From Amphiscolops sp. MND2022 (lineage: Eukaryota): DNA of 64,000 nt. The notes under the pieces were generated by a model, which saw only the letters and a program-made list of their open reading frames with translations, did no database searches and was not told where the DNA came from. Numbering within the stretch: the stretch's first letter is position 1; each line of letters starts with the position of its first letter. Made by a program: the position numbers and the translations under genes. Shown here piece by piece: positions 4,827 through 58,150 of the stretch. The stretch is taken from contig OZ076409.1 of NCBI GenBank assembly GCA_964187785.1, forward strand, positions 31,126,001-31,190,000, in the 5' to 3' direction.

Positions 4827-5410
4827 TTAGTTTTGTTCTACGAGTTTCCAGCACTTGCGGCACAGTGTGATGAATTCTTCTCACCACCAATTGTTGTTTC
4901 TTCTGGTTCCACTAATGTTCGATGCCTTGTGAAACAACTTTTCTCTTTCGAACACATACCACAAATAGCGGTCAACATCTTATTTGATTCAACTTTGGGT
5001 AGGAGATTGAGAATTTTTTTGAAGCCCTCTCTGCGGTGATTACCAATCAGTGCCGGGACGACGACATTTTTCCCTGCCATAGCCAATTGGTCACACATTT
5101 CAACAATTTAATCGAAAAATTGTCCTTCGTCAATGCCTGAAACGATTTCTAAGCAATTGTTCAGATAAAAAGAATGGAAAAGCAAGGTACCACAACTTAC
5201 CTACAACGTCATATTGCGACATTTTTTTGTAATCTGCATCCGGTGTCAATATCCCAAATGCTTGGAGCTGTATCTCAAGTCACCTGCGTATTTGACCACG
5301 ACGCAGGATTTTTGACGATGACTATAACGTTTGACCCGTCTGAGAAGCTCAGTCGTTTTCCCGCTAAACATAGGGCCAATATTTGCTTCAATCGATCTGG
5401 ATTTGTTCAT
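4827..5410 (-). pseudogene. TK1: Thymidine kinase pseudogene, copy 2 (right arm)
   Basis: [19 protein letters not shown] and ILNLLPKVESNKMLTAICGMC; same intron; ~34-bp deletion between AAGCA microhomologies near 5255; C-terminal frameshift. Confidence 0.92.
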
Positions 5411-5685
5411 TTCGTGTTTCCTGCAGAACTTCGTCCAACAGCGTTTATCGTCAAAAAGTGTTATGATAATAGAAACGGTTTTTGAGCCAGGTTTGGTTTT
5501 CTCAATTCCTAGATCCGTTTGTTTCACTTGCGATAGACAACGTAGAAATGTTAAGTTGATTCTTTGTTGATATTGACTATTAGGATGACTGTGCAAGCTT
5601 CTGAGTTCAACTTGGATTGGATGTTCGTTTGAGTTGTCAACATAGTTTCAGTTTGTTTATATCACAAGACCATTCGATCTTCCCT

Positions 5686-34945: not shown

Positions 34946-35289
34946 CACTTGACAGGTTGACCAAACATACTTACCCATGCTATGATCATGCCAAGACCGT
35001 ACCATGGCGACCATGTTTCATAGTATGACCATACTATGGTCATCATGTTTCATAGTATGATCCCTCATGTTTCATAGTATGAACATAGCATGATCATAGT
35101 ATGAGAAACGATGAATTCTAGATTGAAAGTCGAGATGTCGGACATGGTAACCTCCTGTAAACAAAGTTCACAAATTGGATACCGAGTCCTTATGCTGTAT
35201 TTTTAAGGAGGCACTCAGCTCGTGAGATACATAGAATCCAACTTGACGAGACCCACGACGAGAACGTGGCCTCCGTTGGGTCTCAAAAA

Positions 35290-37230
35290 TCTAAAACTTG
35301 GGCAAAACCGCAACAAAATTATGGAAATCAGCTACTGAAAGAGGAATTAGATCTAAAACCTGGGTCAATTCGATCTAAAATCATCAGAACCTCTGGAAAG
35401 ACAGCGAAGAATATCTAAATTATGCATAATTTTATCTCTAAATCGAGAATAATAACTGAAACTTGGGCAAAATAGCTACAAAATACTGGAAAATCAACAA
35501 CTGAAAATGGAATCAGATCTAAAACCTGGATCAATTTGATCTAAAAACAAAAACTCTGGGGAGACAGCGAAGAGTATCTAAATTATGCATAATTTCGTCT
35601 CTAAATTGGGAATATCATCTAAAACTTGGGCAAAAATAGCTGCTAAATTTCGGAAGTCAGCAATTGAAGTAGCAATCAGATCTAAAACCTGGATCAATTT
35701 GATCTAAAATCATCGAAATCTCTGGAAAGAGAGCAAAAAATATCCAAATTATGCATAATTTAGTCTCTGGATTGAGAATAATATCAAAAATTACGGGGGA
35801 ATAGCTACGAAATCATGGAAATCAACAACTGAAAATGGAATCAGATCTAAAACCTGGATCAATTTGATCAAAAAACAAAAACTCTGCGAAGACAGCGAAG
35901 AGTATCTAAATTATGCATAATTTCGTCTCTAAAATGAGAATATTCTCATTTTAGAGACGAAATTATGCAGATTTTTACATCTGCAGAAATTACCCAGATT
36001 ATACATCTGATTCCTATTCCAATAGCCGATTTCCATAATTTAGCAGCTATTTTGCCCAAGTTTTAGATATTATATAATATCTAAAACGTGGGCAAAATAG
36101 CTGCTAAATTATGGAAATCGGCTATTGAAATAGGAATCAGATGTAAAATCTGGGTCAATTGGATCTGAAAACGAAAACTTTAAGATAACGCAGAGTATCT
36201 AAATTATGCATAATTTTGTCTCTAAATCAGGAACAAAAACTAAAACTTGGGCAAAATAGCTGCTAAATTATGGAAAACGGCTATTGAAATAGCAATCAGA
36301 TCTAAAATCTGGGTCAATTGGATCTAAAAACGAAAACTTTAAGATAACGAAGAGTATCTAAATTATGCATAATTTTGTCTCTAAATCGGGAACAATAACT
36401 AAAATTGGGCAAAATAGCTGCTAAATTATGGAAATCGGCTACTGAAATAGGAATCAGATCGAAAATCTGGGTCAATTGGATCTAAAAACAAAACTTCAAC
36501 ACAACGAAGAGTATCTAAATTATGCATAATTTCGCATCTACATTGAGAATATCTAAAATTTCGGCAAAATAGCTGCAAAATTATGGAAATCAGCAACTGA
36601 AATAGGAATCAGGTCTAAAACGTGGATCAATTTGATCGAAAATTATCGAAAACTCTCTGAAGACAGCGAAGAGTATCTAAATCATGCATAATTTTATCTC
36701 TAAATAGAGAATAATAACTGAAACTTGGGCAAAATAGCTGCTGAATTATAGAAATAGGCTATTGAAATAGGAATCAGTTCTTAAATCTGGGTCAATTGGA
36801 TCTAAAAACGAAAACTTTATGATAACGAAGAGTATTTAAATTATGCATAATTTTGCCTCTATATTGAGAATAATATTCGAAATTTCGGCAAAAAAGCTGC
36901 AAAATTATGGATATCAGCAACTGAATTAGGAATCAGATCTACAACCTGGATCACTTTGATCGAAAAACGAAAACTCTGGGAAGACAACGAAGAATTATGC
37001 ATAAGTTTGCGTCTTAATCGAGAAACACAACTAAAAGTTGAGCAAAATTGCTGCTAAATTATGGAAATCGGATATTGAAAAAGGAATCAGATCGAAAATC
37101 TGGGTCAATTGGATCTAAAAACGAAAACTGTAAGACAACGGAGCGTATCTAAAGTATGCATTTTTCGCGTCTATATTGAGAATATCTAAAATTTGGGCAA
37201 AATAGCTGCAAAATTATGAAACCAGCAATT
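35290..37230. repeat. ~160-bp satellite array (left) with an internal inversion
   Basis: Recurring aaacttgggcaaaatagctgc...ggaatcagatctaaaacctggatc...gaagagtatctaaattatgcataat at 158-166-bp spacing. Confidence 0.95.
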
Positions 37231-37242
37231 ATGAAACCAGCT

Positions 37243-39170
37243 TTTTGAGTATTTTAAGTGGAACGGAACAAAAAAGCAGGAACTGTGAACGGAAATCACC
37301 TTAAAAAAGCCGACGTACATGAAAACACTACGAAATTATTTTTTCTGAATCAGCAGGCTTCGAAGAACAAACCAAATGAAGACTAACAGCAACTGCAGCA
37401 CGAAAGTCCACACGATAAAGCATTTTTATGTCAATCGAAAAACCATTGCAGTACCACGCTAAGTAACACTTCCATTTAAAACTGTAATTTACATGACATG
37501 ACACTAGGCAAAGACGGGGAAGACAATCAACAGTTTTGATTGTAAAAAAAACTTACGGAAAAAACAATGACTAATAGTGAACTCAGTTTGATATTGTTCG
37601 GGTCAAGTAAAAAACAACAACAGGACCTTTAAAAACTTCACATTTCCTGAAAAATGGTAATGAGTTCGTGGGACAAAAAACGACTCAGCCACAACATACA
37701 TCTTTCATAACGAGCAGGATCAGAAAACGAAAGAACCTCGGCGGAAGGTTTACCGATAAGCGAGGAAAATTTCGGTGTTAACGTTTGTTATGTAGTCGGA
37801 AGAACCACAAAGCAACTGAAACTTTTCTACAATTTGAAAAAAAAATCAGGTAGAAAGTAACAAAACAACAACAACAGGAACAACTATGAATGGGAGTCAT
37901 CTGAAATACGGGAGAAGTACATAGAGCGAATACGTAACATCGGATATTAAACGAAACAATGTTTCGGAGGTCAATCGTAGATAATCTGTGACCATAACGT
38001 CTCAATTTCTCCATACAAAACGCGGGTCAACAGAAGGTACAACGTACAAACAAGATGACATTCATACCGTGAACAAGCAGGCTGCGGAAAGAATGAGAGA
38101 AACTGCTATTACACCAAAAAGAATCAAAATGCTAGACTTTTTACGCTTTCCGAAAAATTATTTCATGGTTTGCTAGTTTTTGCTAACATTGTTACAGCGA
38201 AAATCACAACCCAAATGATACAAGGTGGAAATGTGGAGGACTGTCAACAGTTTTGACCCTAGAAAACTCCAACGCAAAAAAAAACGACTTAGCGAACAAG
38301 CTGTGCTAATATATGTGTCCTATAAAAAACCTGTACAATACCTCCAAAATTTTTCAACTTTGGGGAAAAACGACAAGAATGACACAAAAAGGGACTCAAC
38401 CTCCTCGTAGATCATTGTTGCCAAGCAGCATCAGGAAACGAAAGTAGCTCAACGTAGAGATCACATCACCGAAATAAATATCGAAAATCTAAGTCTTAAC
38501 GTTTGTGAAATAGTCAGAAAAACCACAAAGCATCGAAGACAATTTTACATTTTTGAGTATTTCAGGTAGAACGGAGCAAAAAAGCAGGAACCGTGAACGG
38601 AAATCATCTTAAAAAAACCGACGTACATGAAAACATTACGAAACATGGGAGAGTCAAAGAAACATGGTTTCTGAAAACAGTCGAAAAACCAATCCATTAC
38701 CTCAAGATTTTTCATTTATACATAAACAATGCGGGCCAACGGAAGCTACAAAGAACAAACAGCCTCACACCATTTTACTGAATCTGCAGGCTTCGAAAAA
38801 CAAACGAAATGAAGACTGACGCAACTGCAGCACAGAAGTTCACACGATACATCATTCTCAAGTCAATCGAATAACTATTCCAGGACCATCTAACTCAAAC
38901 TTCTATTTAAAATTGTAATCTACATGACACTAGGCGAACACAGGGAGGTCTGCCAATAATTTTGATTGTAAAAAAAACTTACGTTAAAAACAACGACTTA
39001 AAACGAATGCAGTTTGACATTGTTCAAAAAAAGTCACTGAGAAGTCACAAAGCAACAACGATTGTTCTAAAGTCTGACAACGATAAATTCATGGAGAAAC
39101 GCAACTTCAGAAACAACAGTTACCGGAAATTAATTTTAAAAAAGACAATTCAAAAAAAAATATTTTGAAA
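37243..39170. repeat. Degenerate long direct repeats
   Basis: 37243-37600 aligns to 38551-39030 (ttttgagtatt...aaaaaagcaggaac.gtgaacggaaatca...ccgacgtacatgaaaaca). Confidence 0.75.
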
Positions 39171-39789
39171 AGTGGAAAACAACGATGAGCTGCACGTTAA
39201 TGAGACACGAGCACCATATATACTATCGTTATTCTTTCAATTCGCTCAATTTGAACGACTCTAGCTTAGTTCAATAGTTCTGTTTAATCTTGGAGTAAAA
39301 TGAGTCTTATTCATTTTAATGAGAAAAGCCTTCTGAAATAAAATGGGCTTCAAAAAAGAAAACAATTGCAATGTTCAATTCGAACGTTGAGGAAAATAAT
39401 AGTAGAAAAACGTTTCTGTAACAAATTGATAAGAACAACCCAAAATCAGGCCATCAGTCATTCATAAGAGCTTTTTAGCTAAACAGACCGAAGGCCTCTC
39501 CACGGGTGTAATATACTAAAACATGGAACATGAAAGTGTAATACAAAATATTGTAATTGAAACATATGAAAACAAATGGAACATGAAACAAACTCTCAAA
39601 AATCAGGCATCCCAAACCAGCTCCAACATTCAATTCATCATTAATGAAAAAGTATGAGTTCAGGCATTCTATTCAAAAACGGGTGACAGCATATTCAACT
39701 ACCAGTCAGCCATAGAAAGCATTGAAGCTAAGCCGACTGATGAACTTCAAGCGAAAGGTTTCAATTTCAGGAAGTAGACAAATCACTTT

Positions 39790-41330
39790 CCAGGCAAGTC
39801 ACTGCATGTTCTATCTTGGCTGGCCAAGATCTCCTTGCTGCCAGGGCTTCTCATAGTAGTCTTGTGTTCCCGGCCACGCTGATTAGCAGAGTTGCGAGCC
39901 AGTTGGTAGGCGTAAAGCGCTTTCACAGGGCCTCGCTTTGAATACGCCCACAGAACAAGTTCTTTGACGTCGGCTTGTTTCTGCAGATCAGCGGGGGTCG
40001 ACTGGCGTTGCTACCCTCGGGTTCAATCATACTGTGTATGAGTTCACTTTCTAGATTTTTGCCAAATATATATTCCGCAATTTTACGTCCATATTTTGAC
40101 TGCTCATAGGGAATAAACATTTCCCGAAGGTTCACTCCTTTATACTTTATTTCCCGGAGATCTGCAACATCGTTCGGAGTGTCACCTTCACACTCAAGGT
40201 CATTGACTGAGATTTCATTTCTCTCAGCAGTCTCGAGGCCTCTAGCGTTTTTGAAAAAAAACTCGACCGACTTCGACTGAAAAAAAGTAATACACTCATA
40301 AGCTATATATCATCGTCTCATGACTAATTGTCTCAAGACTTCTCGGTTCAATCACCATTTAAAAGTCTGAATGTATCGGTCAAATGAGAGGCAAAAGAAA
40401 AGCATGTGGAAAAAACGAAATCAGCGGATATTTCTCATAGCATTTGAAAAGACAAAAAAGCTTACTAGTCGTTCGCGCTCTCTCCGTTCTTTCCTTGCCT
40501 CCTCGCGATACTCTTTCCAGCACTCGCGGTGTGTATCGAGCAGTCTCTCCATGGTCGAGGAAAATGTCTTCAAGGTCTCACGGATCGCGCTAGACGTACA
40601 ATGTAAAAATTAAAAAAACAAACTCCTATTTCAGGCCTATGAAAAATTGATCGGGAATTATAGTCCGGATTCAGGTTGAGGAACTATAGCGAAGTTTTGT
40701 TTAGAAGTGTACTTCCGTCCGAAAGATATTGTCGTGAAATCTGAGTTTCGAGATGAACTTACTTTGCTGACATTGTCACAAGTGCATGGAGTTGACGTGG
40801 GCGGAGTGGACCGATCAATCAGCATTACTGGGGACTGCTCAAAAATTGGCTTCGATTTGACAATTTTTGGTCGTTTCGAAGGTGGTGGTCGTTCAAGGTC
40901 TATCGGGTCCGGGGCATCAGAATCCGCAGACAAATCTTTGTCGTCTGAAGCCTCTCCGTCTTTCGAAGGTTCTGGGGGATCATTTTCATCGTTGGCGAAG
41001 GAGACACATAGGTCTAGCAAGGTCTCCTGCATATTCGAGATCGGTTTCGCACCTTTAGCTTCCACTTTTTTAAGGTACTCTTCCGTGCCACTGTCTATCA
41101 GTGAACACTCATGGTATTTCCGGGTAACCGGGTTCCGGATTTGCAATCTGGAGTGCTTCTGTAGGCTCAACTTCCGATGCAAAGAAGTCCTTCGGCCAGC
41201 CAGAGCTTTCGGAAGATATCATAGAAACAGTTTTATCTCCGGGGCAATAAAACAACCAACGAGTACTGGCTACATCCTCCAGCAATGCTTTTGTATCAAA
41301 CGTTCGTTTTTCACGTCTATCCATAGTGAT
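39790..41330 (-). pseudogene. Multi-exon second gene of the CMC element, with acidic/PEST region, coiled coil and BEN-like C-terminus
   Basis: MDRREKRTF...WLFYCPGDKTVS; PPPSKRPK NLS-like stretch; coiled-coil exon ~40465-40595 (WKEYREEARKERRERE); SKYGRKIAEYIFG...EL...MI...RPPL resembles the BEN pattern. Confidence 0.5.
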
Positions 41331-42166
41331 CAAAAGGTTAGCGCAGTTCTGAAAAATCAACAAAAACCACAAAAAGGGGAACCGCATTGCGAACTCTGGA
41401 AACCAATTATCGAAACGGTCAGCAAAAAAAGCTTGTGAGCAACACCCATTAAGATAAAAAGTTCCAGTCAAAGAAGGATACTCATTACAAACATTTAAAT
41501 AAATCAATGGAAAAAAGTCAAGATCCATTAGAGTAAAAAGAATGCCATTGTTATACAAACCGGCGGATTTTTCAGAAAAGACAAACTTGATAATACTAGT
41601 TCATAGAATTGGTAATTTCACGATTCTGAGAAACTGACAATTGTTGAACTTTCCAGGTACTGATGCGTGAAAGATGCGAAATGAACAAACTTATTCTTTA
41701 CGAGGAAAGGGTTCTAAGGAAAATCTTCGTTGGAGATAAACAGTGCAATCGAAAACTTCATTACTGATGAAGAGATTTGTATTAATAACGTGACATCAAA
41801 CCAAAGTAAGACACTCCGTCAGTCATATAAGCTTCGAAGCTAAACCGACTGAAGGTCTTTAACATAAAACCGATGGAATGAAGAAACATAAAATGTTAAA
41901 ATTAACAATTCGAGATAACAATTCGAAATTCCAAGGAAGATTCTCGAAACATCTACTGAGACCATGAAAGAAATATAAATGGATATGTACTTGGTGGCTG
42001 AACAGAAAACAGAACTTTAAGGCAATCTGCATCAAAAAACCAATGTTTATCTATGAGTCAGCTAAAAAAGCGTAAGAGCTAAACCGACTCAAGGACAAAC
42101 AAAGTGTTAATGAACATTCAGAAGCTTTCATAGTTACAGTGTAACAAAAGAATTTGGTTTATTCGC

Positions 42167-45100
42167 TCAGTTGTGATCGAAATGTGGCGAAAGTTTTACG
42201 AAGAATTTCTCTTGATCAGTGAAAAAAGCAATCATTTTCGCGAAAATTGCGTCACATGGAACATCGATTCTTTCTTCGGTTTTTGCTACGCGAAAGAAAG
42301 CACAGGCTAAATCAGCTCCAGGACATGTAAAAGCTTTCTCGACTATGTTCGTTCAACTAAACAGAATCGGTGTCCACCAAGGCGGAAAAATGCGATGATC
42401 TGGCCGAACCAGAGTTTCCCAGAGCAATCAGAGGAATATGAAATGAATGAGTTGCGGTCAGACTTGGTATCGCTGGCGGAGTCATAGGCTACTCCGTTCA
42501 CAATTTCTCTCGCTGACACTGAGGAAGCTCGGAGAGAGAGTTCTCGAACGGCTGCGGATTCTTTCAGATGACCATATCCAAATTTCTTGCGACCACGCAC
42601 CAACTCAGTTGTCAAGTCGAAGAGCCCATCATTGTCTATCTTGGAAGAAAGAAGTTATTTTATTAGTCAAATAACGTTCAACCAGTAATCTGAGGTGGTT
42701 AACTGATCCGGTGAAAGTGGATACGAGAGAGTGATGGGCCGATTCAAAAGCAAAGCAAGACGCTGTCCACAATGGGCCATAGTTTCGCACTTGTCAGGTT
42801 AAATGTCTTAGCGAATGCAGAATAAAAGTTTGTTCAATCTGATCCAGAGCAGCGAAGCCGACACAAAAATCGTTGAGCAAAGTATCGCATTCCATCAAAA
42901 AATCGTCAGTTTCCAGCAGGACTCGGATTGCATAGGAAAACGTCCACAACAACTCACTGAGAGTTTCATTCAGCAACCCCAATGTAATTACAGGCGAAAC
43001 GTACAAGAGCCAAGTTTTGAATTCACTCGCTTTAAAATGAGACATTTGGTCCAAGCCACGAACTGATCGTTGGAACTCGAAAGGCAATCTGAAATTTCGG
43101 GCTCTCTGATTTAAAACTAATCTTTTGGCGGGTTGTAGAGAAGAATACAGGTGACAAAAAAAGTTCTTAGCAACTCCCAAACAAACTGTATGCATGTAAT
43201 CAATTGTAACGAAGAAAGGTACCCTCTCACTGATCAAACTCAATGGAGACTTACCTAAGAGTATTGAGCGTTTAATTTCAGGAAAAATCAGCCAAAAAAG
43301 GAATTTCAAGTCCGCGAAGATGAATTAGTCAAGATGCTTTGATTGGTGAATGAACTAAATGGTTAAAGAAAACCAAAAAAAAACATTACCTTTTTGCTTA
43401 ATCAATTTAGCTCAATACCCCTGACACCCTTCGTTTGACGACGAAAAAACTTTGCGCTGGGATCAAACCCAGCAGCTTCCAGTTTCTGAACTTCAGAGAG
43501 ATTTTTGTGATACGACTCATAAGTGCGCATCTTGATAACGCTTTGGCAAGGATAAATCCTTGAACTGTGTGAAACAATTTCACCTTCATCTTCACGAAGA
43601 TGACAACCAAAATACCCATTGAACTGCTTCATGTTGAGTATGGCAGCTTTGGCAACATTGTCAGCACTCAGAAACAAAAATTCGATGTTCACAGTATAAG
43701 AAAAACCGTCATGATGGAAAAAGTCGAAGTCCGATGCTTCCCTTTTGACATATCGGAAAATAATGTCGAAATCAGGTTTTCCTTCACCAAACCACAAGCT
43801 CGCCAGAACAATATTGTCGAACGAAAAACGCAAAACCGGTGGTAAATCCGCGATAGTCATCCATAAGGGGTAAAGATGTTTACCAGATGAGTGAATAATT
43901 TTGACACCATCAGTCGAAATTATCAGATCGAGGGTGATTCCTGTACCACTCTCATTGAGAAATTTCCCAATTTTGACATCTTTCGAACTCTCCGATGTGG
44001 CCCTGCGCGAACGTTCTTTCAGAATCCTCCAATTGCGGCAACAAATATCCTTTAACTCCAAAGCGAACTTGAGAGGTATCAAATCACCTGAATTACAAGG
44101 CACTTGGGTGTATGTTTTTTCAAGAAATTACTTCCTACTTTCATTTTTGAAATGATTCATTCCTGGTAAATTTCTGCCCGGATTTGTTGAACGGAAAACT
44201 TTCAGAACGTCGTTCATGAGCGCGTCTGATGCCCGATGTTTAGAACATAATGCCGTTAAACATAACTGGAGATTGTTCAACCCAATTTCAGGATGGGCAG
44301 TCAATGGGATGTCCAGTGTTGAACATTGACTATCTGAACGTGAGAGTTGGTGCACTTCTTCGATGTTTTCAGCGGAAAAAACTTCCCTGGGGTCTCCGTT
44401 ATGAATTGGATTTGAAGAACCGACAGGTTCAAGCTCGAGGAGACGTTCTTCAGGTCGAGATTCCTCACATGAAAAATCACTCGAGTCCTGACTAGGAGAA
44501 GCTCGCAGGTCCTCAATTTCACCAGTGGAATTGTCCATGAGAACCGTTCTTTTCCTCTTGTAGGATTTCGAAGTTTCTGCGCAGACGAATGACATAAAGC
44601 CTGACAACGTAATACGCCGTCTTTTGACTTTAGCAGATTCAAAACTTCGACATACAGAAAATGATTGGCTACAAACAGTGGATAAAGGTGGCTCGTGAAG
44701 ATGCACATGAGGACAACGACATTCAAGCGATTCGAAAAACTCTTTTCCATAGTAGACTGTAATCTCGTCTGCGGCCTCAATAGCTTTCAATGTTTTTAAT
44801 TTGAAACAAGGAAGCCCGTTAAGGGACGTGAATTCATATTTGCAATTTGGATTACATGAAGAATTGACGAAACGAATACTTCCAGCCACTAATCTAGGAT
44901 ATTTACACATCTGAGTTGGCGCTATGGTGGATAGGTCATCAAAATTATGTTCGTCAGCGGGTTTGATCTTGGCCATGATGCCAGCCGGAGCGGTCAGAAC
45001 TTGGTTGGCTTGTCTGTTTCGCAATGTTTTGAGACTGTGACCGCCGAACTCGTCAGGAAAGAATTTGTAACCAGCTTCGACTGTCTCTTCATAAAGTGAT

Positions 45101-45264
45101 TCTAATCGACGGAGTAAATCGAATTCGTTTTTAGTCGCATTTTTTTCAAATGTTGAAAAGTCAGGCAGCTGAATCAACGTGCTGGCTGTACGGCCAGAGG
45201 TAGAGACAAATTTCTTTGCTGCAAAACCATCACAAAGCGCCAGACTTACTGGTAGCAAATTCAT
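42167..45264 (-). pseudogene. SET-domain / EnSpm-type DDE transposase fusion gene, with a 164-bp intron (43255-43418) and a few lesions
   Basis: SET-like GSIRFVNSSCNPNC...IEAADEITVYYG..FF...CRC; then LIISTDGV, LYPLWMTIADLPPVLRF, GEGKP, SADNVAKAAILNMKQFNGYFGC, spliced KGVRG/KSPL, IDYMHTVCLGV, FKASEFKTWLLY, HSLRHL..QVRNYGPLWTASCFAFES, ending HFDHN*. The stop at 44128-44130 is in frame with the downstream ORF. Confidence 0.9.
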
Positions 45265-46274
45265 TGACACAATACTGAAATTATACCTAAACACAAGCTG
45301 GAACCGAAGAACTCACTTGCCAGCTGTTTGGAAATTAGCTAAATCAAAGTGTTTAATCCAAGATTCAATAGTTTATTTTCGTCAACGGAAAAGACTGACT
45401 TCGACGTGACAAAAATGTTGAAAGGCAAGCAGCGTGAACTTGTATCCATCTACGGGCATGATAATGAAAAAAGTCATACCAATTTAAAGTCGAAATTTGC
45501 AAATCAACGAATATTACTAAGCTGAACACAGCCTATCTATCAGCTGAACTATTAGGTCGTTGGCCTCAAAATTTGAAAGGAAGAACGCTTTTGCTACAAA
45601 AGCTGGAGCATAATTTTAAGTGTAAAAAATGCCAAAAAAAACATTCAAGTTGGTACAAGAAACATCTATTCATGTAAAAAGAAAAGTTCATGTAAAAGAA
45701 TAGAGACATCAGATCGTCAGCAAAAAAGTAGAACAAAATCGAGAGAAAGAGAGCAAATTAATCAAACCACATGTTTTATTAAACCTCAAGCCGACTGCGT
45801 CGCTTCGTTTTTTTCTGAGCTCCCGTTGGCCGCTTACGCATAAGAGGTAAACGTCCCTCCGTTATTCTTCGCAGGATTCTCGACAGCGTGGCCCTTATTG
45901 AGAATCTCGTCTGGTGAAAGGCATCACCAGCTTTAAAATGCAGACCACCCAAGATTACCTCGTGCACTTTGAGCGAACCGCTCGAATTCAAACCCAGAAG
46001 TACTTTCTTCATTTCGATGTTGATCACATTCTCGTCGGTATTCAAAGGTATTTTCATTTTTTTCGCTACGCCATCGCTGGCAGTTCTTCCGGGCTTCGGC
46101 ATTTTTGAGTTGTCTTCTTGAAAACCCAACGAAAAATTCAACTCACTTCTGGGCGCATTGGACATTGGCCTATTTATGTGATGTTCAATCTAATCAAAAC
46201 CATGGAAAATTTTAAAAATATTTTTTATATACTCTGATGCTTTTATGGGACATAGTTGAAACGTTGTCTATTTT

Positions 46275-46739
46275 CTAAGTTGCCATCTTTTTTATACCAC
46301 CGTTCATAAATGGAACATCACAGGCCTCGGTTAGTTTTCTCCCAACTTCTGAACACGGTTTTGCTACATTTTTGCACCCAGGTTTATTAAAGATGGAATT
46401 CTGGATCACATCCGGGTAAAGAAAAATACAATCAGCTCCCCAACACAAAGCACTCTTCGGCGCTCCATCAAATGACAAACTCTCGTTTTTGTGCTGAAAT
46501 TTAGACCCACTGCCACCGAAACACTTCAGCAAACAACCTTCGACGTTGGAAAGATGGTAGGGGATTTTGCACTTGCACCGGCAAAAACAGGACTGCCAGC
46601 CAATTTTGTCCCAAATGGCTTTCTGCAGTTTCCGCAGATTTTTGCTGCACTTTCTCCGCACCGAAACAAAACCGTTCGAAGCGATCAAGACCGCAATCTT
46701 TTTTCGTTCTGGACATTTTCGTTGTATCTTCATCATCAA
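46275..46739 (-). CDS. Uncharacterised Cys-rich ORF inside the CMC element
   Basis: 154-aa ORF (CFCRCKC...LCWGADC); no family recognised. Confidence 0.3.
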   Translation of the reverse strand: MMMKIQRKCPERKKIAVLIASNGFVSVRRKCSKNLRKLQKAIWDKIGWQSCFCRCKCKIPYHLSNVEGCLLKCFGGSGSKFQHKNESLSFDGAPKSALCWGADCIFLYPDVIQNSIFNKPGCKNVAKPCSEVGRKLTEACDVPFMNGGIKKMAT

Positions 46740-47329
46740 CTAAAAATATTTCGCAATCAGCACTACTATTAAACGGAATTCCGCAAATACTTACCACCCT
46801 TGAAAACCTACAGTGGCCCTCTATGCTTGCAAAACGCTTTGTTCCCCTTTCAAAACAAAGCGGGCAACTTTGGTTTAAAAAAATTGGTGAAAAAATCGCA
46901 TAGTGCAGAAAAAAATTGTTAAATCAGGGAAACTATCTTGAATAAGGAATAAGATCGAAAACCTGGGTTATATTGGTCTAAAAACGAACGCTTTCAGAAG
47001 ACATGAAGAGTATCTAATTTTCGCATTTCGTCGCTAATTTTTAAAAATTCTCATTTACTTTTAATAAGGACCGTGCGTACTGAAACCCACTTTTCATATT
47101 GATACAAACTGAGAAAGAAGCCCGTAGTTAAGAGGGCGAGTCGGAAAAAGTTGAAGATGGTGTCGCATACGCTGCAAGCTGCAGAGCCTCCTTGCAGTGT
47201 CACTAACGTTCCCATTTAAATAAAGATTGTACACCTTGGTAAGTGGATGAAAGTTTATTTATTACTGCACTAATATCACTATGTAAAACAATGCTCGTTG
47301 TAATAAGGAATCTGGCAAACTACACTAAT

Positions 47330-48855
47330 AATATCTAAGCAAAAACTTGAGCAAAATAACTGCAAAATTATGAAAATAGGCAACTCAAAGAGGAATCACA
47401 GCTAAAACCTGGATCTATTTGATGTAAAATAATCCGAAACTATGGGAAGACAGCGAAGAGTATCTAAATTATACATCATTTAGTCTCTATTGAGAATAAT
47501 ATCGAAAATTTTTCAAAATAGCTTCAAAATTATGAAAATAAGCAATTCAAATAGGAATCAGATCTAAAACCTGGATCTATTTGATCTAAAATCATTAAAC
47601 TCTGGGAAGACAACGAAGAGCATCTAATTTATGCATAATTTAGTCTCTATATTGAGAATATTATCTAAAATTTTGACAAAATAGCTGCAAGATTATGGAA
47701 ATCAGCAACTGAAATAGGAATCAGATTTAAAGCCTGGATCATTTTGATCTAAAATCATCAAAAACTATGCGAAGACAGCGAACAGTATCTAATATATGCA
47801 TAGTTTCTTCTCTAAAATGAGAATAATATCTAAAACTTGGGCAAAAATAGCTGCTAAATTATGGATATCAGCTATTGAAATAGGAATCATAACTAAACCT
47901 GGATCATTTTTATGTAAAATCCTCGAGAACTCTGGAAAGACAGCGAAGAAAATCCAAATTATGCATAATTTAGTCTCTGGATTGAGAATGATATCAAAAA
48001 TTACGGGGAAATAGCTACAAAATTATGGAAAATCAACAACTGAAAATAGAATCAGATCTAAAACCTGGATCAATTTGATCCAAAAACAAAAACTCTGGGA
48101 AGACAGCGAAGAGTATCTAAATTATGCATAATTTCGTCTCTAAAATGAGAATAATATCTAAAACTTGGACAAAAATAGCTGCTAAATTATGGATATCAGC
48201 TATTGAAATAGGAATCATAACTAAACCTGGATCATTTTGATCTAAAATCCTCGAAAACTCTGGAAAGACAGCGAAGAATATCCAAATTATGCATAATTTA
48301 GTCTCTGTATTGAGAATAATATCAAAAATTACGGGGAAATAGCTACAAATTTATGGAAAGTCAACAACTGAAAATAGAATCAGATCTAAAACCTGGATCA
48401 ATTTGATCTAAAAACAAAAACTCTGGGAAGACAGCGAAGAGTATCTAAATTATGCATAATTTCGTCTCTAAATTGTGAATTATTTTTAAAACTTGGGCAA
48501 AAATAGCTGCTTATTATGGAAATCGGCTATTGAAATAGGAATCAGAACTAAAACCTGGATCATTTTGATTTAAAATCATCGAAAACTATGGGAAGACAGC
48601 GAAGAGTATCTAAATTATACATAATTTAGTCCCTATTGAGAATATCAAAAAATTTTCAAAATAGCTGCAAAATTATGGAAATAAGCAATTCAAATAGGAA
48701 TCAGATCTAAAACCTGGATCTATTCGATCGAAAGTCATCAAAAACTCTGGGAAGACAGCGGAGAGCATCTAAATTATGCATAATTTAGTCTTCTATATTG
48801 AGAATATTATCTAAAATTCCGGCAAAATAGCTGCAAAATTATGGAAATCAGCAAC
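47330..48855. repeat. ~160-165-bp satellite array (right), same family and orientation as 35290-37230; partial unit near 46945-47030
   Basis: Same consensus; two monomer variants alternate over ~47830-48480. Confidence 0.95.
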
Positions 48856-51639
48856 CCAATATCCCAAAAAATCCTACCTATCTCAGCGGCTTCAGGAAAC
48901 GCCGTGCCGAAAAGCGTCCTTAATGCTACCCGGGTCATTAAGGTAACCCTAGATCTTCCAAAACCGAGGAACAAGCCAATTAGATACTTTTTGATGTGTT
49001 TCGAATTTCAAATTTTTCCGCTAGGGGGACTTCGAATTTTTGAAAATTTTCAAACATGGTCACTCATACTATGACCATAATCGTTGCCATGCTAGTCATA
49101 ATATGGCCATACTATGACCATATTATGATGATCATTTTCCACCATGATCATTCTATGACATAGTATGATGCGCCATTTCCGAGTATGGGGGTCAACCCGG
49201 GTTGGAACAACAGCTTCAAGCTGACCAAGGCTGCAAATATTGTTTCATAGCTTGGAGAGACAGTATCTTAAAAGGGCGCGGACTTGGAAAAGCAGAAGTG
49301 CTTATTTGGCGTCCATACCGCGGATTCTGCTCTCTTTTCTGCCTCAACTAGAAGACGAAAAACCAAAGAAACAAGGTCTTGTAGTAAACCCTTGTTGAAA
49401 TCGCTTGAACTTTTTACATGTACTTTAATGTTCTCAGTAACATTTATTTTGATTTTCTAAATTTCTTACGGAAACTTTCATGCGACAAAAGTTCCCTGTT
49501 GCATTTAACTTTTATCAAGCTGCTTGAAAGCTTGAAATTTTAACCCGTGAAGTTTTGCAAGTTTCATTATTCATCAGTTCTAATTTTCAAAGCGACATTT
49601 TACCGTCATTTTAATGCAAATTAAATTCATTCACAATGTAAAGAACTAACTAGCGTCATCTTCAGCGTCCTACTTGAGAAGCAGTGATTAAATGATGAGT
49701 AGTTGAGGAAACAAAGTGTCAAAACAAAATGATCGTGTCGGTAATGTAGAGTAATTTATTTTCAAATTTAATTGCAGTAGTGAAAAATGCAATGTAATTG
49801 TAATGATTTACCACCCGAAATTCACTGAATTTTCTAGGCTTTTAAAAAATTACCCTGCATGCAGGCATGCAGCATGTAAAAAGTTACCGCAGCTTCAACT
49901 AAGGAAAGAATAGTGGAAAACGTAGGGATTTCAACTGAAGGAGTGAATAATCAAATATCTCAAAGACTTGGTGGATTATGGGACGAGACGGATGCTCAAA
50001 TAGAGAGAGTTATTGACGCTTCGATAAATGAGAGAGTAGTTCCCCACATTTAGGCAAGTTCAGGCAGTCTTAGCGATGTAGTTAACCTACAAGGTGACTC
50101 TTGATCCATGGGACCGGAACGGATACCCCTGAAGGTATAAATGAACGCCCTGTGTCAGGTCTATAATTCAGGTGTTGTCGCCGCATTTCACATGATTGAA
50201 TATAGTATTGTGGAATAGTGCGCTTTTCTCAATACACAAATTTACTGTTTCTCCAAGAGATTGCATTTGCTAATTTTCTCCTTCAATGTACTCTCAATTC
50301 TGCTCATATATGATAACGCCATTGGCTGATAAATGAGCTCTGTTATTAACTTCTCTAGGTTAGCGTCATGGTTGTTGGTGAGGATAAAAGTAACGCCAAG
50401 TTTTTCTCAGACTTGCTTTTTTCGCATAAAAAGTCACCTCAAACAGAATATGGGGCTTAATTTTTGTTTTCTTCGCTGGCTTTGATCTGTTTCACAGTAG
50501 TGAAAAGTGAAAGAGTGCACTTTCGTTTTTTTGAACTCTCACTACCGTGACATAATAATGGGTTTGCCTTGGGATCTTAATTTTTTCTGAAATAAATTTC
50601 TTGAAAAAAACAATGAACCATTTTTGTCGCTGAAAACTGTCGATATTGCAACGCATAAACGTCGCGAGCATTGAGCTAAGCAGAGTTTCTCCAATAAACG
50701 AAAATGTGTATTTTTCGGGATAAAGCAAATTTAATAGGAACTCAAGGTCCCAAATGTTTGTTAATTTTTGCAATGACTCACCTCCGGAGGTGACCAGAAA
50801 ATATGCTTCCCGAAAAGAGGTTTATAAAGAGAGTTTTCAATGTTTAAAGCATTTCAAAACTGCCCTAATGTTTTAGCGAATAACAACAATGCTTCCGATT
50901 TCAAGAAGAAAAAGTACAGAGAGAAGCTTCGAAAATTTGATGAGAAGTGTCAACTAGTGCTTTACCTATGTGAAAACATGACAGTTGGGTATCGGGAGCC
51001 CCACAATCGCCCAAAAGACTTTGATCAGAAGATGCTATCGTTCCTCCAGCTCAAGACAACCAACATGACCTCATAGTGACGTTGTTGTCTTGGATGCCAT
51101 CATGAGCAATCAATCATTGAATCAATCTCAACTACTTGTCGATACAAACTGCTTGAGCAATACGTTGTCAATTGTATCTAATAGTTTCAAATTCATATTA
51201 ATTGCATCTCTTGATTTGGAAATTGTTCTCGACGTGGAAAAAAGTCGAATGAAATCTAAAATAGAGCAGACTTTTTTTGCAAGTCATTGAATTTTTTTGT
51301 AAATGTTCAGGAAATCGACACAACTTACACTTTCGAAATCCTAACGAAGCATATAGTTTTACTTGGCAAGCTGATATAAGAGCAACATCGAGCGCAGTTC
51401 TTCAAAAATTTCCAAAGGCGAGATGCAAAATTGCTTCGAAACGGAAAATGAACTCAAATGCGAATGGCATTCCTAGCTTTGAAAAAAGTGATGAGACATC
51501 GAGCCGAAGGAGCTGGACTGAAGTTTCTTGAAATTTCGTGTGGATTACAATGCTGTTTGCTTGGAATTACTATCATCAATATGACACTTCATTTTTGTTT
51601 CAACATGTATCATTAGTTTAGAGCTGGAAAACACGTGAA

Positions 51640-54600
51640 AATTTTTGCGTTGAATAACCTAATTTTGCAAGCCCAACGTTTTTACAATATGGCAGCGCGT
51701 TTTATCTGTTTGTGCTTTTTAGCGCGAAAATACGCGTTTTAGCGCACTTTACCTTGCTCCAGCTGCGAAACGGCTGTTGATGCAGGCAATTGCTTGTTTT
51801 TCGTTATTAATAGGTCTGCAGAGGAAAACGGGGTATTTGCGTTAGAAAAGCGTTATTCGCGTTGTAACCGTTTTTGGCAAAAACGAGTCTCTAGGTCAAA
51901 AGAAGGCGTTTTAGCATACATTTAGCTCAAAAATAAGTGAATGCAGGAAATTGCTTGTTTTTATTTGAGATTCTTCATGGCACAACTCGTTTGCAAGCTT
52001 GCCAGTACCTTATTTGCGTTATAACCGCTTTACAAAAACGTGCTTTGTGAGAAACAACACGTTTTGGAACACTTGGAGTTTTTTGCTGAAATACGCGTGT
52101 AAATGCAGGGAATTGCTTGTTTTTGCGTTATTAAACTATTTCTGCCCAGCACAACGCCTTTGCACGCTTGCTTGCCAGCGCGTTTTTTTGCGTTATAACT
52201 GTTTTTTGCAAAACAGCGATAATTTTGTAGTTGCATTATAGTTTCCGCGCAAAATACAGTTGATTCTCGTTACCGCACACCCTTTGGAGACTATGTGGCG
52301 AAGTGCTTGATAACGAGCCTTACGCAATAACAAAAATTCCGACATATAACGTATTACATGTAAACCTGAAAAGGGATTAGTTTATAATAGCGCTCTCAGG
52401 GCATCTGTACGGTGACGGCATTGTGCAGTAAAGTCAACTTTTTTGACGGAATCAATTTTTTAAAGCTGAAAAATGCTTGGAAAGGCAGAAAGTTGCTTGT
52501 TTTGGATGTTAATAAGCGACTGCATTACACAACGCGTTTTTTTGCGATTTAATCGTTTTTTGTCATTACCGGGAAAGAAAGCGTTCTAGCTGGAAAACGT
52601 GTGGAAAGGCAAGACCTTTTGTTTGCGTTATAATCGATTTTTGCAAAAAAAAATGTAAATGCAGGTAATTACTAGTTTTTGCGTTGATAAACTAATTCTG
52701 CACAGCAACGCGTTTACGCGCTCGACAGCGCGTTGTTTGCATTATAACCGAAAACTGCAGCAAAACGTTTCCACTGCGAAATTAATTGTTTCAACTCACA
52801 TTGAACTGTTTTAGCTGAAAAACGCGTGTAGAAGCTGGAAACCGCTTGTGTTTGCATTCGTTAAATAGGCACGCCGGATTGCATTATTATTGGAGACCGC
52901 AACAGACCGCTTTTTCGCGCTAAATTTTGCGTTTAGACGCCCTATACCTTGTTTTAGCTAAAAAACAGCATGAAAAAACAAGGAATTGTCTGTTTTGCAA
53001 ATTAATAACCTACGTTTGAAGTGCCCAACGCCTTTGCACGCGTGTCAGCTCGTTATTTCCGTTATAAGCAGTTTTTGCAACGAAGAGAGTCTGCACGCGA
53101 GCTAAAACCATTTTGCGTTATATTGCTTGTTTTCAGAAAACTGTCTTTGGGCGAAGCAACACGATTTGATGCACTTGAAGGTTTTGGCTGGAAAACCCGT
53201 GTAAAAGTAGGGAATTTCTTGGTTTTGAGTTAATAAACCTATTCTGGACCGGAAGTAGCGAGAAACCGTTTTCGCGCTAAATGAGGTGTTTCAGTTAACT
53301 TTACCTCATTTCAGTTGAAAAAAGCGTGTAAATGCAAGAAAATGCTTGTTTTTGCGACGTCATTTTATTTGTGTCAGAATTTGTGTTGCGTTTCAACCGT
53401 TTTTCTACAAAAAAAGCGTTTTTATCGCGGAATAACGCGTTTTAGCGCACGCGTGTGAATACATGAAAACAGTTGTCAAAACTACCAACTCGACGAAGCA
53501 CAAGGCAATTGCATCTATGCTAGACTATTTTTCGCATATGACTGATTTTTGCAAAAAAAAAACACTTTTTCAGCTCGCGAAAACGAGTGTTGGCGTATGA
53601 CATCAAGGTGGTTGCGTTATATTCTTTGTCTACTCAGTTCAGTGGTTCAGTCTTTGCTTTCCAACCGGTCTGCGCGAGTTCCAATCTGTGGCTGTGCCTT
53701 TATCAATAAACTGCTTTCTATTATTACACTGTTGACCTTGATATTGCTAGTTTCTCATTTATACACTTAACCGATCAAAGCTCTTTCATGAGACCTTTTT
53801 ATTCAAACATATGTAAACAACCTGCTCAGATCTTTTTGTTGTCGTCTCAACTGTAAACGCCGCCTCCGCTACTGCTGCCCTCAATAACCAGTTAACAACC
53901 AGTCCCCATAACTTCACCTATTATATCATTTATCTATCCTTCACACAGTAAATAAACTTTATCAAATATAGTTCTCTTGCTTCGACATAAATCCCTAATC
54001 GTCAAAAGCCTGAACTCTTTTTTTTAGTCCTCTCAAAACTATAGTTTGAACTTTATCTTGAGTTCTTTCGTTGTTGCTCACTTGGCAGCTATCTCGAAAC
54101 ATTGGTGACCTCCACGAAATAGCAACGACAGATAACACATGAGGTTCAGAAGACTCTAATGGTGTGTTGAAGTTGCCTCGACTGACGCGATCAAAAGGGG
54201 CTCACATTATATGGGCAACACTAATCCAGTGTTGTGGTGTAAGGGCAAGATCAAGGAGTTGCAGCCTCCAAGCACCAGTGACACAGTGTCCCCATCAAGT
54301 GACCTGGCCATCTGACTACAAAGTTAACCGTATTTGTCTCTCAGCGGCGAATTCACACCTTGACTTTCTTTCTGGGACCAAATTGAAACCCTTGTTGACA
54401 TTGCGGACGTTGAGAAGCTATAACACGTCAAAGTGTCATTGAACGTTGATACCGCTCAAAAAGTACTCTCTGGTGATCACTCATGCAAACTTCGACATTG
54501 CGAAGCGAAAGTGAAAAGGGGCACTACAACAACAGCCGTTCAATGGAGGAAGCGCATTCACCTGAAGTTTAAGTCTACCAGATGTAAGCAAGGAGTCAAA

Positions 54601-57600
54601 TGTCGAGCTGCTACAGATTTCGGAATCGACGACTGAACAAATGCGAGCAGTGGAAGCATAGATGTTACCTTTTGATCGATGGGATGCAATATTAGGTGCT
54701 AATAAAATTAGATCGAGAAAGCGGTTTGAATTGTCACATCCTGGCACTGATGTAATATTATTCAAAGAGTCATTTACTTTCTTTGATAGACAAAGCTGCG
54801 CATTGAATCCAATAGTGACCAGCCTGACGCTTCCATTCCTAAGATGCACATAATAAAATGCATCAAAAAGCCTACTCCTCAACTGTTGAACAGTCCACGA
54901 GTTGTCAAATGAAAGAATACAATTTCGATGCACAAATGTGATCGGTACGAGCAATTGGGCACGCGTGAAAGAAAAACAGCGGCGAGGAAGCTCCTCAAAC
55001 GTTATGTTTAGTGAAAAACGCATTCAAACGCAGGGAATTGCTTGTCTTAGCGTTAAATACCCTAAAAATGCAATGATCAGCCCGTTTGCACGCATGGCAG
55101 CGCTGTCACTGTGTTAAAACCTTAGTGAGCAAAAAAGGCGTTTTTAGCGCAAAAAAATGCGTTTTGGCGCATCTAACGTTGTTTTCGCTGCAAAACGCGT
55201 TCAAAACGCGGGGAAGCACTCGTTTTAGCGTAAGATAACCTATTTTTGCATAGTTCAACACAGTTGCATGCGTGGCAGCGCTTTCATTGCGTTAAAACCG
55301 TCAGTGTGCAAAAAACACGTTTTTACCGCGAAACAACGCGTTTTAGCGCATCTATGGTTGTTTTTGCTGAAAATTGGGTATAAAAGCGGGGAAACAGTTT
55401 TTTTGCGTTAAACAACCTATTTTGCTTAATTCAACTCATTTCATGTTTGGAAAGCGCTTTTATTGCGTTAAAACCGTTAGTGTGCAAAAAACTCGTTTTT
55501 AGCGCGAATTACCGCGTTTTAGAGCCTTGTTTTAGCTGAAAAATGGGTTTGAAATTGGGGAAAATCCCGTTTTTGCGTTACACAGCCTATTTTTGCATAG
55601 CTCAACGCAGTTGCATGCGTGGCAGCGCTTTCATTACGTTGAAATTGTTAATGTGCAAAAAACGCGTTTTTAGCGCAAAACAATGCGTTTTAGCGCATCT
55701 AACGTTGTTTTCGCTGAACAACGGGTTTAAAAGCGGGGAAAATCTCGTTTTCACGTTAAACAACCTGTTTTTGCATAGTTCAACCCATTTGCATGTTTGG
55801 CAGTGCTTTCATTGCGTTAAAACCGTTAGTGTGCAAAAAACTCGTTTTTAGCGCAAATTCCCGCGTTTTAGCGCCTTGTTTTTGCTGAAAAACGGGTGTA
55901 AAAGCGGGGAAAATCTCGTTTTTGCGTTAAACAACCCATTTTTGCATGGCTCAACGCAGTTGCATGCGTGGCAGCGCTTTCATTGCGTTAAAACCTTAGT
56001 GAGCAAAAAAGGCGTTTTTAGCGCAAAATATTGCGTTTTAGCGCATCTAACGTTGTTTTCGCTGCAAAACGCGTTCGAAACGCGGGGAAGCACTCGTTTT
56101 TGCGTAAGATAACCTATTTTTGCATAGTTCAACACAGTTGCATGTTTGGCAGCGCTCTCATTGCGTTAAAACCGTTAGTGTGCAAAAAACTCGTTTTTAG
56201 CGCAAATTACCGCGTTTTAGCCCTTGTTTTTGCTGGAAAACGGGTGTAAAGGCGGGGCGGGGAAAATCCCGTTTTTGCGTTAAACAACCTATTTTTGCAT
56301 AGATTAACGCAGTTACATGCGTGGCAGCGCTTTCATTGCGTTGAAACCTTTAATGTGCAAAAAACGCGTTTTTAGCGCAAAAAAACGTGTTTTAGCGCTT
56401 CTAACGTTGTTTTCGCTGAAAAACGGTATAAAAGCGGGGAAAACCTCGTTTTTGTTTTAAACAACCTAGTTTGCATAGTTCAACGCAGTTGCATGCGTGG
56501 CAGAGCTTGCTTTCATTGCGTTGAAACCGTTTGTGTGCAAAAGACACGAATTTAGAGCGAATTACTGCGTTTTAGCGCTTCTAACGTTGTTTTCGCTGAA
56601 AAACGGTATAAAAGCGGGGAAAATCTCGTTTTTGCTTTAAACAACCTATTTTTGCATAGTTCAACGCATTTGCATGCGCGGCAGAGGTTGCTTTCATTGC
56701 GTTGAAACCGTTTGTGTGCAAAAGACACGATTTTAGAGCGAATTACTGCGTTTTAGCGCATATAACGTTGTTTTCGCTGAAAAACGCGTTTGAATATGAG
56801 GAAGTGCTTGTTTTGCGGTAAACAATGTTTTTGCATAGCTCAAAGCATTTGCATGCGTGGCACCGTTTTCATTGCGTTGAAAGTTAGTGTGCAAAAACTA
56901 ACCTATTTTTGCATAGTTCAACGCATTAACGGATTTGCACCCGTTGCAACGCTTCTATTGCGTTAAAACCGTTAGTGGGCAGAAATCAAGTGTTTAGCGC
57001 GAAATACCGCGTTTTAGCGCATCTAACGTTGTTTTTGCTGAAAAAACATGTTCACAGGCGGAGAATAGTTTGTCGTCGCATAAAAAACCTAGTTTTGCAT
57101 AGTGCAACGCATTTGCACGCGTGTCAGCGCTTTCATTACTTTGTAACTGTTAGTATGCGGAAAAACGCGTTTCTAGCGCAAAATACCGCGTTTTAGCGCA
57201 TCTACCCTTGTTTTCGCTGAAAAACGCATTTAAACGCGGTGAACTGCTTGTTCTTGCGTTCTATAACTTTTTTTCATAGTTAATCGAATTTGCACCCGCG
57301 GCAGAGGCTCCAGTGCGTTAGAACCGTTAGTGTGCAGAAAACGAGTTTTCAGCGCCAAGTAATGCGTTTTAGCGCATCTAAAGTTTCGTTTTGCCGAAAA
57401 ACGCGTTTAAAAGCGGGAATTGCATGTTTTTGCGGTGGATAACCAAATTCTGCATAGTGCAACGCATTTGCACGCGTGGCAGCGCTTTCATAGCGTTAAA
57501 ACTGTTAGTGTTCAAAAAAGCGTTGTTTTTGCTGGAAAACGCGTTTGAACAGGAAAATGTTTATTGTGTTAAGTAACATAATTTTGCATGGTTCAACTTG

Positions 57601-58150
57601 CTTGCATGCGTGGCAGCGTTTTCATTTCATCAAAACCGTTAGCGTGCAAAAAGCCGCTTTTAGCGTGCAAAACCGCGTTTTAGCGCCTTGTTTTTGCTGA
57701 AAAACTCATTTAAACGTTGGGAATTGCTTGTTTTCGCATTAAAAAGCCTAATTTTGGAATATGCAACGCATTTGCACCCGTGGCAGCGCTTTAATTGCGT
57801 CAGAAATGTTATTGTGCAGAAAGCGCGTTTAAGCGCGAAAAACCGTGTTTCAGCGCATCTAACCTTGTTTTCGCTGGAAAACGTGTTTAAACACATGGAA
57901 TTGTTTTTGTGTAAAGTAAAATAGTTTTGCATAGTTCAATTTGCTTACACGCGTGGTAGCGCTCTCACTGCGTTGAAACAGTTAGTGTATAAATTGCTTT
58001 TTAGCGCGAAATACCGCGTTTTAGCGCATCTAACCTTGTTTTCGCTGAAAAACGCGGTTAAACGCAGGGAATTGTTTTTCTGTGTTAAGTAACCTAATTC
58101 TGCATAGTTCAGTTTGTTTGCATGCGCGGCAGCGTTTTCATTGCGTTAAA
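51640..58150. repeat. CpG-rich ~170-180-bp satellite: degenerate at 51640-53587, homogeneous at ~54960-58150
   Basis: Recurring gcgttttagcgcatctaacgttgttttcgctgaaaaac...ttttgcatagttcaacgca.ttgcatgcgtggcagcgctttcattgcgttaaaaccgttagtgtgcaaaaaa. Confidence 0.93.
53588..54950 (+). mobile_element. Truncated LTR retrotransposon in the satellite: 5' LTR 53588-54101, PBS 54103-54116, protease remnant
   Basis: TGTT...AACA LTR with aataaa; TGGTGACCTCCACG resembles a tRNA-Trp PBS; IETLVDI and LPFDRWDAILG are retropepsin-like fragments. Confidence 0.72.

Follow-up and report, generated by a model that had tools for sequence, protein, structure and literature searches.

The question raised by this locus is whether a SET domain and a transposase that share a reading frame belong together as one gene of a mobile element, and what the product of such a gene might do to chromatin. 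The locus lies in a 64,000-nt stretch of the genome of Amphiscolops sp. MND2022 (contig OZ076409.1, positions 31,126,001 to 31,190,000 of the forward strand; hereafter the window, with positions counted from its first letter). A decayed DNA transposon of the EnSpm/CMCT type occupies 34953-49201 on the minus strand of the window (14.2 kb, the span being defined by copy-to-copy similarity). The first-pass annotation, made from the letters of the window, had proposed a CACTA/EnSpm-type transposase with an N-terminal SET domain. Open frames in many families, inverted repeats at the termini (TIRs) and duplications of the target site (TSDs) confirm that a single gene of a mobile element encodes both SET and an EnSpm/CMC-type transposase. 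There is very little doubt that we are dealing with an EnSpm/CMCT-type transposon whose transposase gene opens with a SUV4-20-type SET domain.

The 1.07-Gb genome was searched with the SET region, and 150 of the 340 candidates were scored, all with an E value of 0.001 or better. One hundred loci of ten kb were fetched, picked non-randomly by rank and distinct score, and the transposase at these loci was scored with profiles cut from alignment A1. A transposase was located not more than 4 kb downstream of SET in 79 of the 100 loci, and in 38 of the 100 it lay in the open frame of the SET domain. L069, L070, L109, L110, L112 and L113 contain whole open reading frames (ORFs) of 977-1099 codons. 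Of the remaining 21 loci, 14 have a recombinase-linked SET, one is the gene of the host, two contain short remnants of a transposase and four are unexplained. The reverse test used 20 loci that were picked by their transposase from 114 matches and were absent from the SET lists; SET was present upstream in 19 of them. The pairing of both parts in either direction answers the objection, raised with the first-pass annotation, that other family members might lack SET. A DNA search with the transposase core of the window gave 17 matches: all 16 long ones are also loci of the SET search, and the other one has a length of 94 bp. The 59 intact transposase-linked SET domains could be grouped into 28 types at 85% identity.

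Some loci show further arrangements. A multi-copy SET frame of 219 codons was found at L116 and L117 (G000:C8:1.96 Mb and C13:46.59 Mb), with no transposase within 10 kb; L116 has a further SET-bearing frame of 551 codons on the opposite strand. The family comprising L191-L193, L196 and L198 has a SET domain that seems to be interrupted by an intron, and another, partial SET is located between this domain and the transposase. At L041-L042 (G000:C1:42.82-42.84 Mb) four decayed SET-transposase genes are arranged head-to-tail with a spacing of about 2.7 kb. L086:4315-4953 and L083:9572-10000 contain a frame resembling SGNH/GDSL esterases (GDS..GGND by eye; weak match to Pfam Lipase_GDSL_2, E 0.13).

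The SET-transposase gene of the window copy consists of the following parts, all on the minus strand:

44690-45264: SUV4-20/KMT5-type module with N-flanking helices, SET and post-SET CxCxH, starting with the ATG at 45264; assigned by Pfam, PDB and the model of L069
44311-44689: linker, basic and then acidic, weakly constrained (ratio of nonsynonymous to synonymous substitution rates, dN/dS, 0.23-0.50 between families)
44131-44310: N-terminal helical region of the transposase, in the same frame as SET
44128-44130: nonsense codon of the window copy, replaced by a sense codon in 9 of 9 relatives
43419-44127: transposase core with the first and second Asp (TDG, SAD) and the CxxC motif (here CHLR); DUF1258 match with E 2e-5
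43255-43418: putative phase-1 GT-AG intron of 164 nt, from comparison with intron-less families
42167-43254: transposase exon 2 with DYMH, HSLRH, the catalytic Glu in FES and the C-terminal domain; fully open in copy L031

SET and the transposase N-terminus were indeed found in one frame, as first annotated. This frame of 394 codons (44128-45312) contains GSIRFVNSSCNPNC, IEAADEITVYYG, the CRC motif, the acidic linker and LCSKHRASDALMNDVLKVF, and the Pfam SET match lies above its cut-off. The core had been described as separated from it by a single TAA plus 8 codons; the in-frame TAA at 44130-44128 is real, whereas the 8 codons have no clear counterpart. A core frame of 241 codons starts right after the TAA, in frame; as its first Met sits beyond the first catalytic Asp, it lacks a separate start codon. 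At the stop position all nine related copies have a sense codon, which is GAA in the three closest ones. The stop is thus not conserved among copies, an outcome that had been considered at the outset, and is unique to the window copy. In L031, a copy with 94% identity, SET, linker and core form a single frame of 644 codons.

The proposed GT-AG intron is likewise supported by comparison: removal of 43418-43255 would give the sequence GVRGKSPL, which matches GVLGRSHL and GVKGRSAF of the intron-less families. The window copy of the transposon is dead. In addition to the TAA it has a TGA in LRHLT*Q (42796-42794; Trp in L031) and two frameshifts in exon 2, near 42660 and 42345. TDG, SAD and FES are present in its transposase, and the CxxC motif is broken by a Cys-to-Arg exchange.

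The assignment of the SET domain to the SUV4-20/KMT5 type is based on sequence, profile and predicted fold. Pfam SET (PF00856) matched residues 139-189 (44898-44746) with E 5.8e-9 and 36.8 bits at a cut-off of 22.4. The best match of the window SET in a PDB sequence search was SUV420H2 (E 4e-9). With a profile of the SET family the value for SUV420H2 was 1.5e-20; SUV4-20 proteins ranged from 1e-20 to 1e-18 and other SET families had 6e-9 or worse. An AlphaFold model of the L069 module (predicted local distance difference test, pLDDT, 88.5) matched 4AU7 at E 2.6e-11, and Foldseek with this model returned exclusively SUV4-20 chains through rank 15. Identity to KMT5B in the fold alignment is modest (22-27%). 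The SET domain is closest to SUV4-20 by all three approaches, and the lack of a profile or structure match, which had been named as a possible outcome, was not observed. An exon of the host SUV4-20 gene is located at C12:41.46 Mb and shows 57% identity to turtle KMT5B, which suggests an animal as host; no transposase lies alongside. An approximately unbiased (AU) test did not reject a single clade of the transposase-linked SET domains (p 0.68, with only two host sequences as root), a result that does not in itself demonstrate such a clade.

Residue numbers in the following are those of mouse Suv4-20h2 (PMC3874154). In SUV4-20 enzymes Ser161 replaces the canonical Tyr and holds the lysine together with Tyr217, the hydrophobic methyl pocket of Phe191 and Trp174 requires a monomethylated substrate, and H4 is contacted mainly via the main chain (PMC3874154). 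Ser161, Asn182 and Tyr217 are kept in all 28 families of this genome. Ser161 and Tyr217 are also kept in 20 of 20 proteins from public collections, and Ser161 in 8 of 8 recombinase-linked types. Cys185 is present in 27 of 28 families and the fourth zinc ligand in 26 of 27. The first-pass annotation had pointed out that the canonical NHxC motif reads NSSC in the window. This is correct as to the altered motif; it is a trait of the lineage, found in 15 of 28 families, and no lesion of this copy, so that decay of the window copy was rejected as its origin. PRDM9 is active without the His.

The transposase shows the hallmarks of the CMCT clade, for which a DDE triad together with C(2)C and H(3)H has been described (PMC12730594). 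All 14 full-length proteins of alignment A1 have the D, D, E triad and both of these motifs without exception. Among the 26 proteins scanned, the cut-off of PF02992 (Transposase_21) was passed by one (P0007), L069 reaching 27.6 versus 28.6 bits, and that of DUF1258 by nine; the window core remained below cut-off. The element ends are CCCRGGTT..AACCYGGG or CCCTAG..CTAGGG, and a TSD of 2 bp flanks 10 of the 11 copies with both ends located. It is missing for C_C4, in which the right end possibly derives from another element. In one family the left end was searched and not located. TSDs of 2 bp fall within the 2-5 bp of the CMCT clade. Strict CACTA/EnSpm elements are defined by 5'-CAC..GTG-3' termini (CA..TG in most CMCT) and a 3-bp TSD; because the termini are CCC..GGG with 2-bp TSDs, they are not CACTA ends in this sense, and the label of the first-pass annotation is not supported. 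Some animal EnSpm families have CCC..GGG ends. Pairs of copies on different chromosomes show 98.6-99.9% identity across 11-20 kb, therefore several families moved recently. The element family is extensive and of old age, and it was mobile until recently.

Purifying selection acts on SET to the same degree as on the transposase. Where dS could be measured in diverged pairs, dN/dS was 0.09-0.18 for SET and 0.09-0.17 for the transposase (most distant pair, 0.25), with the higher values of the linker given above; the ratios come from 19 pairs, near-identical pairs being uninformative. SET is also inherited together with the transposase. The trees of both parts were compared with 43 elements included: of 13 strong splits among the SET domains, 11 were found again in the transposase tree and none conflicted with a strong split there, and SET and transposase distances were correlated (Mantel rho 0.78, 0 of 999 permutations).

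Fused relatives are encoded elsewhere as well. When 1.84 billion representatives were searched, 150 rows were listed, and a SET region was detected in 25 of 152 proteins, including two proteins added separately. The Pfam SET cut-off was passed by 21 of the 23 SET-bearing public proteins scanned. Five of the public SET-bearing proteins are 92-100% identical to fetched loci of this genome, and the rest 27-40%. Three of the latter were compared with the whole genome and stem from other genomes, since their best matches reach 32-48%. In the tree the public SET domains interleave with the families of this genome, which implies an old radiation or transfer. The ESM Atlas returned transposase clusters only, under 0.8, and none with SET. 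Word-seeded protein searches were insensitive, with 2 and 4 matches and none for the recombinase-linked protein.

A second class of SET-bearing repeats was observed at 14 of the 100 loci (L105-L108, L120-L122, L144, L150, L153, L156, L158, L160 and L162; for example G000:C6:57.81-57.83 Mb, C11:60.85 Mb and C5:41.80 Mb), at which a related SUV4-20-type SET precedes a region resembling tyrosine recombinases. The units have a length of about 9-10 kb, are over 99% identical and are often arranged in tandem; L105 contains SET and the recombinase-like region in a single frame of 1153 codons. Where intact, all these SET domains have NHxC and CxCxxC. The recombinase-like region shows R..K..R..H..Y-like motifs by eye, a weak match to Pfam Phage_int_SAM_4 (E 0.02) and a single Atlas row, of whose members 13% have Phage_integrase. 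Its model has low confidence (pLDDT 52), and the recombinase rows of Foldseek were weak (E above 0.3). Nothing significant was found for this protein in PDB sequence and profile, PHROGs, NCBIfam, Foldseek and VIA searches. CryptonV elements are tyrosine-recombinase transposons that target microsatellites (PMC8869645). The repeats fit a CryptonV-like nature by their length and by (TAA)n-like runs at both ends in 5 of 5 copies examined (two families), that is, microsatellite insertion without TIRs, and may do so by the recombinase-like protein; they differ from CryptonV by the additional SUV4-20-type SET ahead of the putative recombinase. Met at position 174 is common to the transposase-linked and the recombinase-linked SET domains, which hints at a single capture of SUV4-20 and a later exchange between transposon classes.

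What could the fusion protein do? The reading that we favor, to which as a whole mechanism we give slightly less than an even chance, is that it methylates lysine 20 of histone H4 (H4K20) on nucleosomes by the element ends and the insertion site. An ancestral element would have captured the SUV4-20 domain of a host, and the transposase would bring SET to the element ends, the subterminal repeats and the target DNA. The remodelled pocket, with Met for Trp174 and Tyr for Phe191, would probably produce a low methyl state (me1/me2) and need no pre-methylated lysine. The mark might favor end-joining repair of the cuts made by the transposase, or it might keep a host silencing mark off the element. 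H4K20 methylation is read by 53BP1. Beyond the fusion itself, we infer the steps of this tethered-writer mechanism. A wider version, which we put forward tentatively and consider rather doubtful, is that SUV4-20 was captured once long ago, that its pocket was rebuilt without the need for priming by PR-Set7 and that it was passed between EnSpm-type and CryptonV-type elements; the transposase would then write its own H4K20 mark at the cuts, steering repair or pre-empting silencing.

Several findings weigh against an H4K20 writer. Trp174 is kept in none of the 28 families (Met in 24, otherwise Leu or Val), Phe191 is replaced by Tyr in 24 and kept as Phe in 3, and His183 is lost in 18, with Ser in 15 and Ala in 3, the family of the window included. 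With the Phe-to-Tyr exchange, mouse Suv4-20h1 lost activity dramatically, and the mutant was nearly dead (PMC3874154). Given these pocket changes, a standard me1-to-me2 enzyme is unlikely, and judged from its residues the SET domain should be a writer that has been re-tuned, or else a reader. A binding role is as compatible with purifying selection as catalysis is, and the dN/dS values are rough, dS being saturated in most diverged pairs. The tree branch with all 43 SET-bearing transposases (62 rows) has a local support of only 88% and includes 19 proteins without SET, 18 of which are short at the N-terminus. Furthermore, several young families have a stop or frame change in the linker; some in-frame GT-AG join is permitted at 10 of 12 split loci, none of them convincing, and none at all at the other two.

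The pocket data would also suit a SET domain that reads nucleosomes or H4K20 methylation and serves as a tether, with little or no catalysis, and that steers the transposase or shields H4K20 from the host enzyme. Chromodomains steer some integrases to a chromatin type. Titles of PDB entries mention non-catalytic roles of SUV420H1, and a survey reports that the commonest transposon fusions are those with readers (bioRxiv 2021.11.30.470311). The cofactor-side residues are, however, not obviously needed by a pure reader, and the invariance of Ser161, Asn182 and Tyr217 in the families and of Ser161 and Tyr217 in the public proteins argues against it, as does NHxC, which is kept by all eight recombinase-linked SET types; we regard a reader as possible and not as probable. 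An active lysine methyltransferase with a substrate other than H4K20, which could be the transposase itself, the accessory protein of the element, a different lysine on histones or a host factor of silencing or repair, would be in line with the divergence of the pocket and of the H4-pairing SET-I strand from the host enzyme and with the modest identity to KMT5B. This is unlikely, as the lysine-holding Ser161 is kept, and drift of side chains need not alter the substrate because SUV4-20 binds H4 mostly by the main chain (PMC3874154).

SET could also be made mostly as a separate short protein, by the stop, by splicing or by early polyadenylation, and act in trans as an accessory gene, as in HarbingerS and Plavaka, the fusion being incidental. 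Near-identical young copies in which the SET frame closes in the linker (L045-L048, L059/L063) would agree with this. The six whole single ORFs and the fused public proteins do not, and in 9 of 12 split loci no Met precedes the conserved transposase start, so that an upstream exon is required; separate proteins are thus quite improbable. Domesticated host genes, or a host SET gene beside a transposon, were rejected as an explanation and have hardly any probability left. Strong purifying selection speaks for them, and SETMAR is a precedent (bioRxiv 2021.11.30.470311), but instead of a single fixed host gene without transposon ends we found at least 28 families with dispersed copies, near-identical pairs, TIRs, TSDs and many decayed copies. 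The host SUV4-20 gene lies elsewhere, at the C12 position given above, and has no adjoining transposase.

The preferred H4K20 writer has partial parallels among known proteins and elements. SETMAR/Metnase is a single domesticated gene of primates with an N-terminal SET in frame with a mariner transposase. It resembles the present fusion in this layout, a SET at the N-terminus that shares the frame of a DDE/D transposase, and differs in the type of both SET and transposase; here they belong to multi-copy mobile elements with TIRs and TSDs. SUV4-20/KMT5B-C is the best match by sequence, profile and fold and shares Ser161, Asn182, Cys185, Tyr217 and the zinc cysteines. The differences are the pocket changes, a shorter N-flank and the absence of the host C-terminal region in the element.

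Transposons that carry SET are, as a class, known from earlier work. Plavaka elements of red algae, which belong to the EnSpm superfamily, carry SET in the accessory gene PAG2, and SET-carrying Helitrons have been reported as well (bioRxiv 10.1101/2025.02.11.637652). Plavaka resembles our element as a large EnSpm-type transposon with SET, accessory genes and internal tandem repeats, and in long evolutionary retention and exchange between transposon types. According to this source PAG2 is a separate gene that combines an N6-adenine methylase with SET, whereas here a SUV4-20-type SET lies within the transposase frame, and CCC..GGG termini are present. Phytophthora has HarbingerS and MuDR families with SET genes (Repbase Reports 2014, as cited in PMC12730594). 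Like the Helitrons they are DNA elements with a captured SET for which an anti-silencing role was proposed; HarbingerS and MuDR belong to other superfamilies and hosts, and the SET of HarbingerS is an accessory gene. A survey of 172 genomes lists 823 candidate fusions of chromatin and transposon proteins, SET included, and names SETMAR (bioRxiv 2021.11.30.470311). No in-frame fusion of a SUV4-20-type SET with an EnSpm-type transposase was found in full-text searches of the literature, a scope that excludes Repbase Reports, Dfam, subscription journals and Supplementary Table 6 of this survey.

Chromatin enzymes of transposons are known in plants, fungi, algae and oomycetes; in nearly all cases they are encoded by accessory genes and lack a test of their activity. 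Here, a SET of the H4K20 type is part of the transposase, and selection has kept it in no fewer than 28 families as well as in other genomes. With young intact copies at hand, histone-writing by transposons for their own benefit becomes testable on one polypeptide. The element is also a mobile counterpart to SETMAR, indicating that a SET-transposase fusion can be an adaptation of the element itself. The Phe/Tyr, Trp/Met and His/Ser variants that occur naturally are of interest for how the product specificity of SUV4-20 is determined. If the writer reading is true, the family would provide a self-targeting histone writer together with dozens of naturally occurring variants of the SUV4-20 active site.

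Outside the SET-transposase gene, the element in the window contains the following parts:

49190-49201, minus strand: left (5') TIR CCCGGGTTGACC; similarity of the C6 and C1 copies begins exactly there
47317-48860: left-arm subterminal array of ~160-bp repeats, found by repeat search; internal to the element in other copies
45782-46739, minus strand: two upstream ORFs (46278-46739 and 45782-46189), a probable accessory gene or exons; 53% and 63% identity to a sister family
39786-41330, minus strand: downstream second gene with several exons, a coiled-coil part and a conserved C-terminal domain; 56-72% identity to a sister family
35272-37230: right-arm subterminal array of ~160-bp repeats, in the same orientation as the left array
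34953-34962, minus strand: right TIR, which has lost its final two bases; 7 bases from an assembly gap

Intact right ends of the GGTCAACCTGGG type are present in the C6, C7, C8 and C1 copies. The two upstream ORFs and the downstream gene gave no significant Pfam match; the downstream gene has distant matches in two more families. A satellite that had been hit by the element was rejected as the origin of the ~160-bp arrays, which lie inside the TIRs in every copy compared. A motif of ~110-160 bp near the right end (window 35133-35294) recurs in the distant families L054, L059, L062, L063, L065 and L068-L070 with 72-84% identity and several copies per element, and is a candidate binding site of a protein encoded by the element.

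Repeats were also observed in the flanks of the element. Positions 1-5830 of the window form a large inverted duplication whose arms are 95-97% complementary, with a centre of 216 nt at 2824-3039, and it is adjoined by a tandem array of 84-bp units at 5.7-7.3 kb. On the other side, an array of ~176-bp repeats occupies 51757-58150; it may be a satellite or belong to the subterminal part of a further element.

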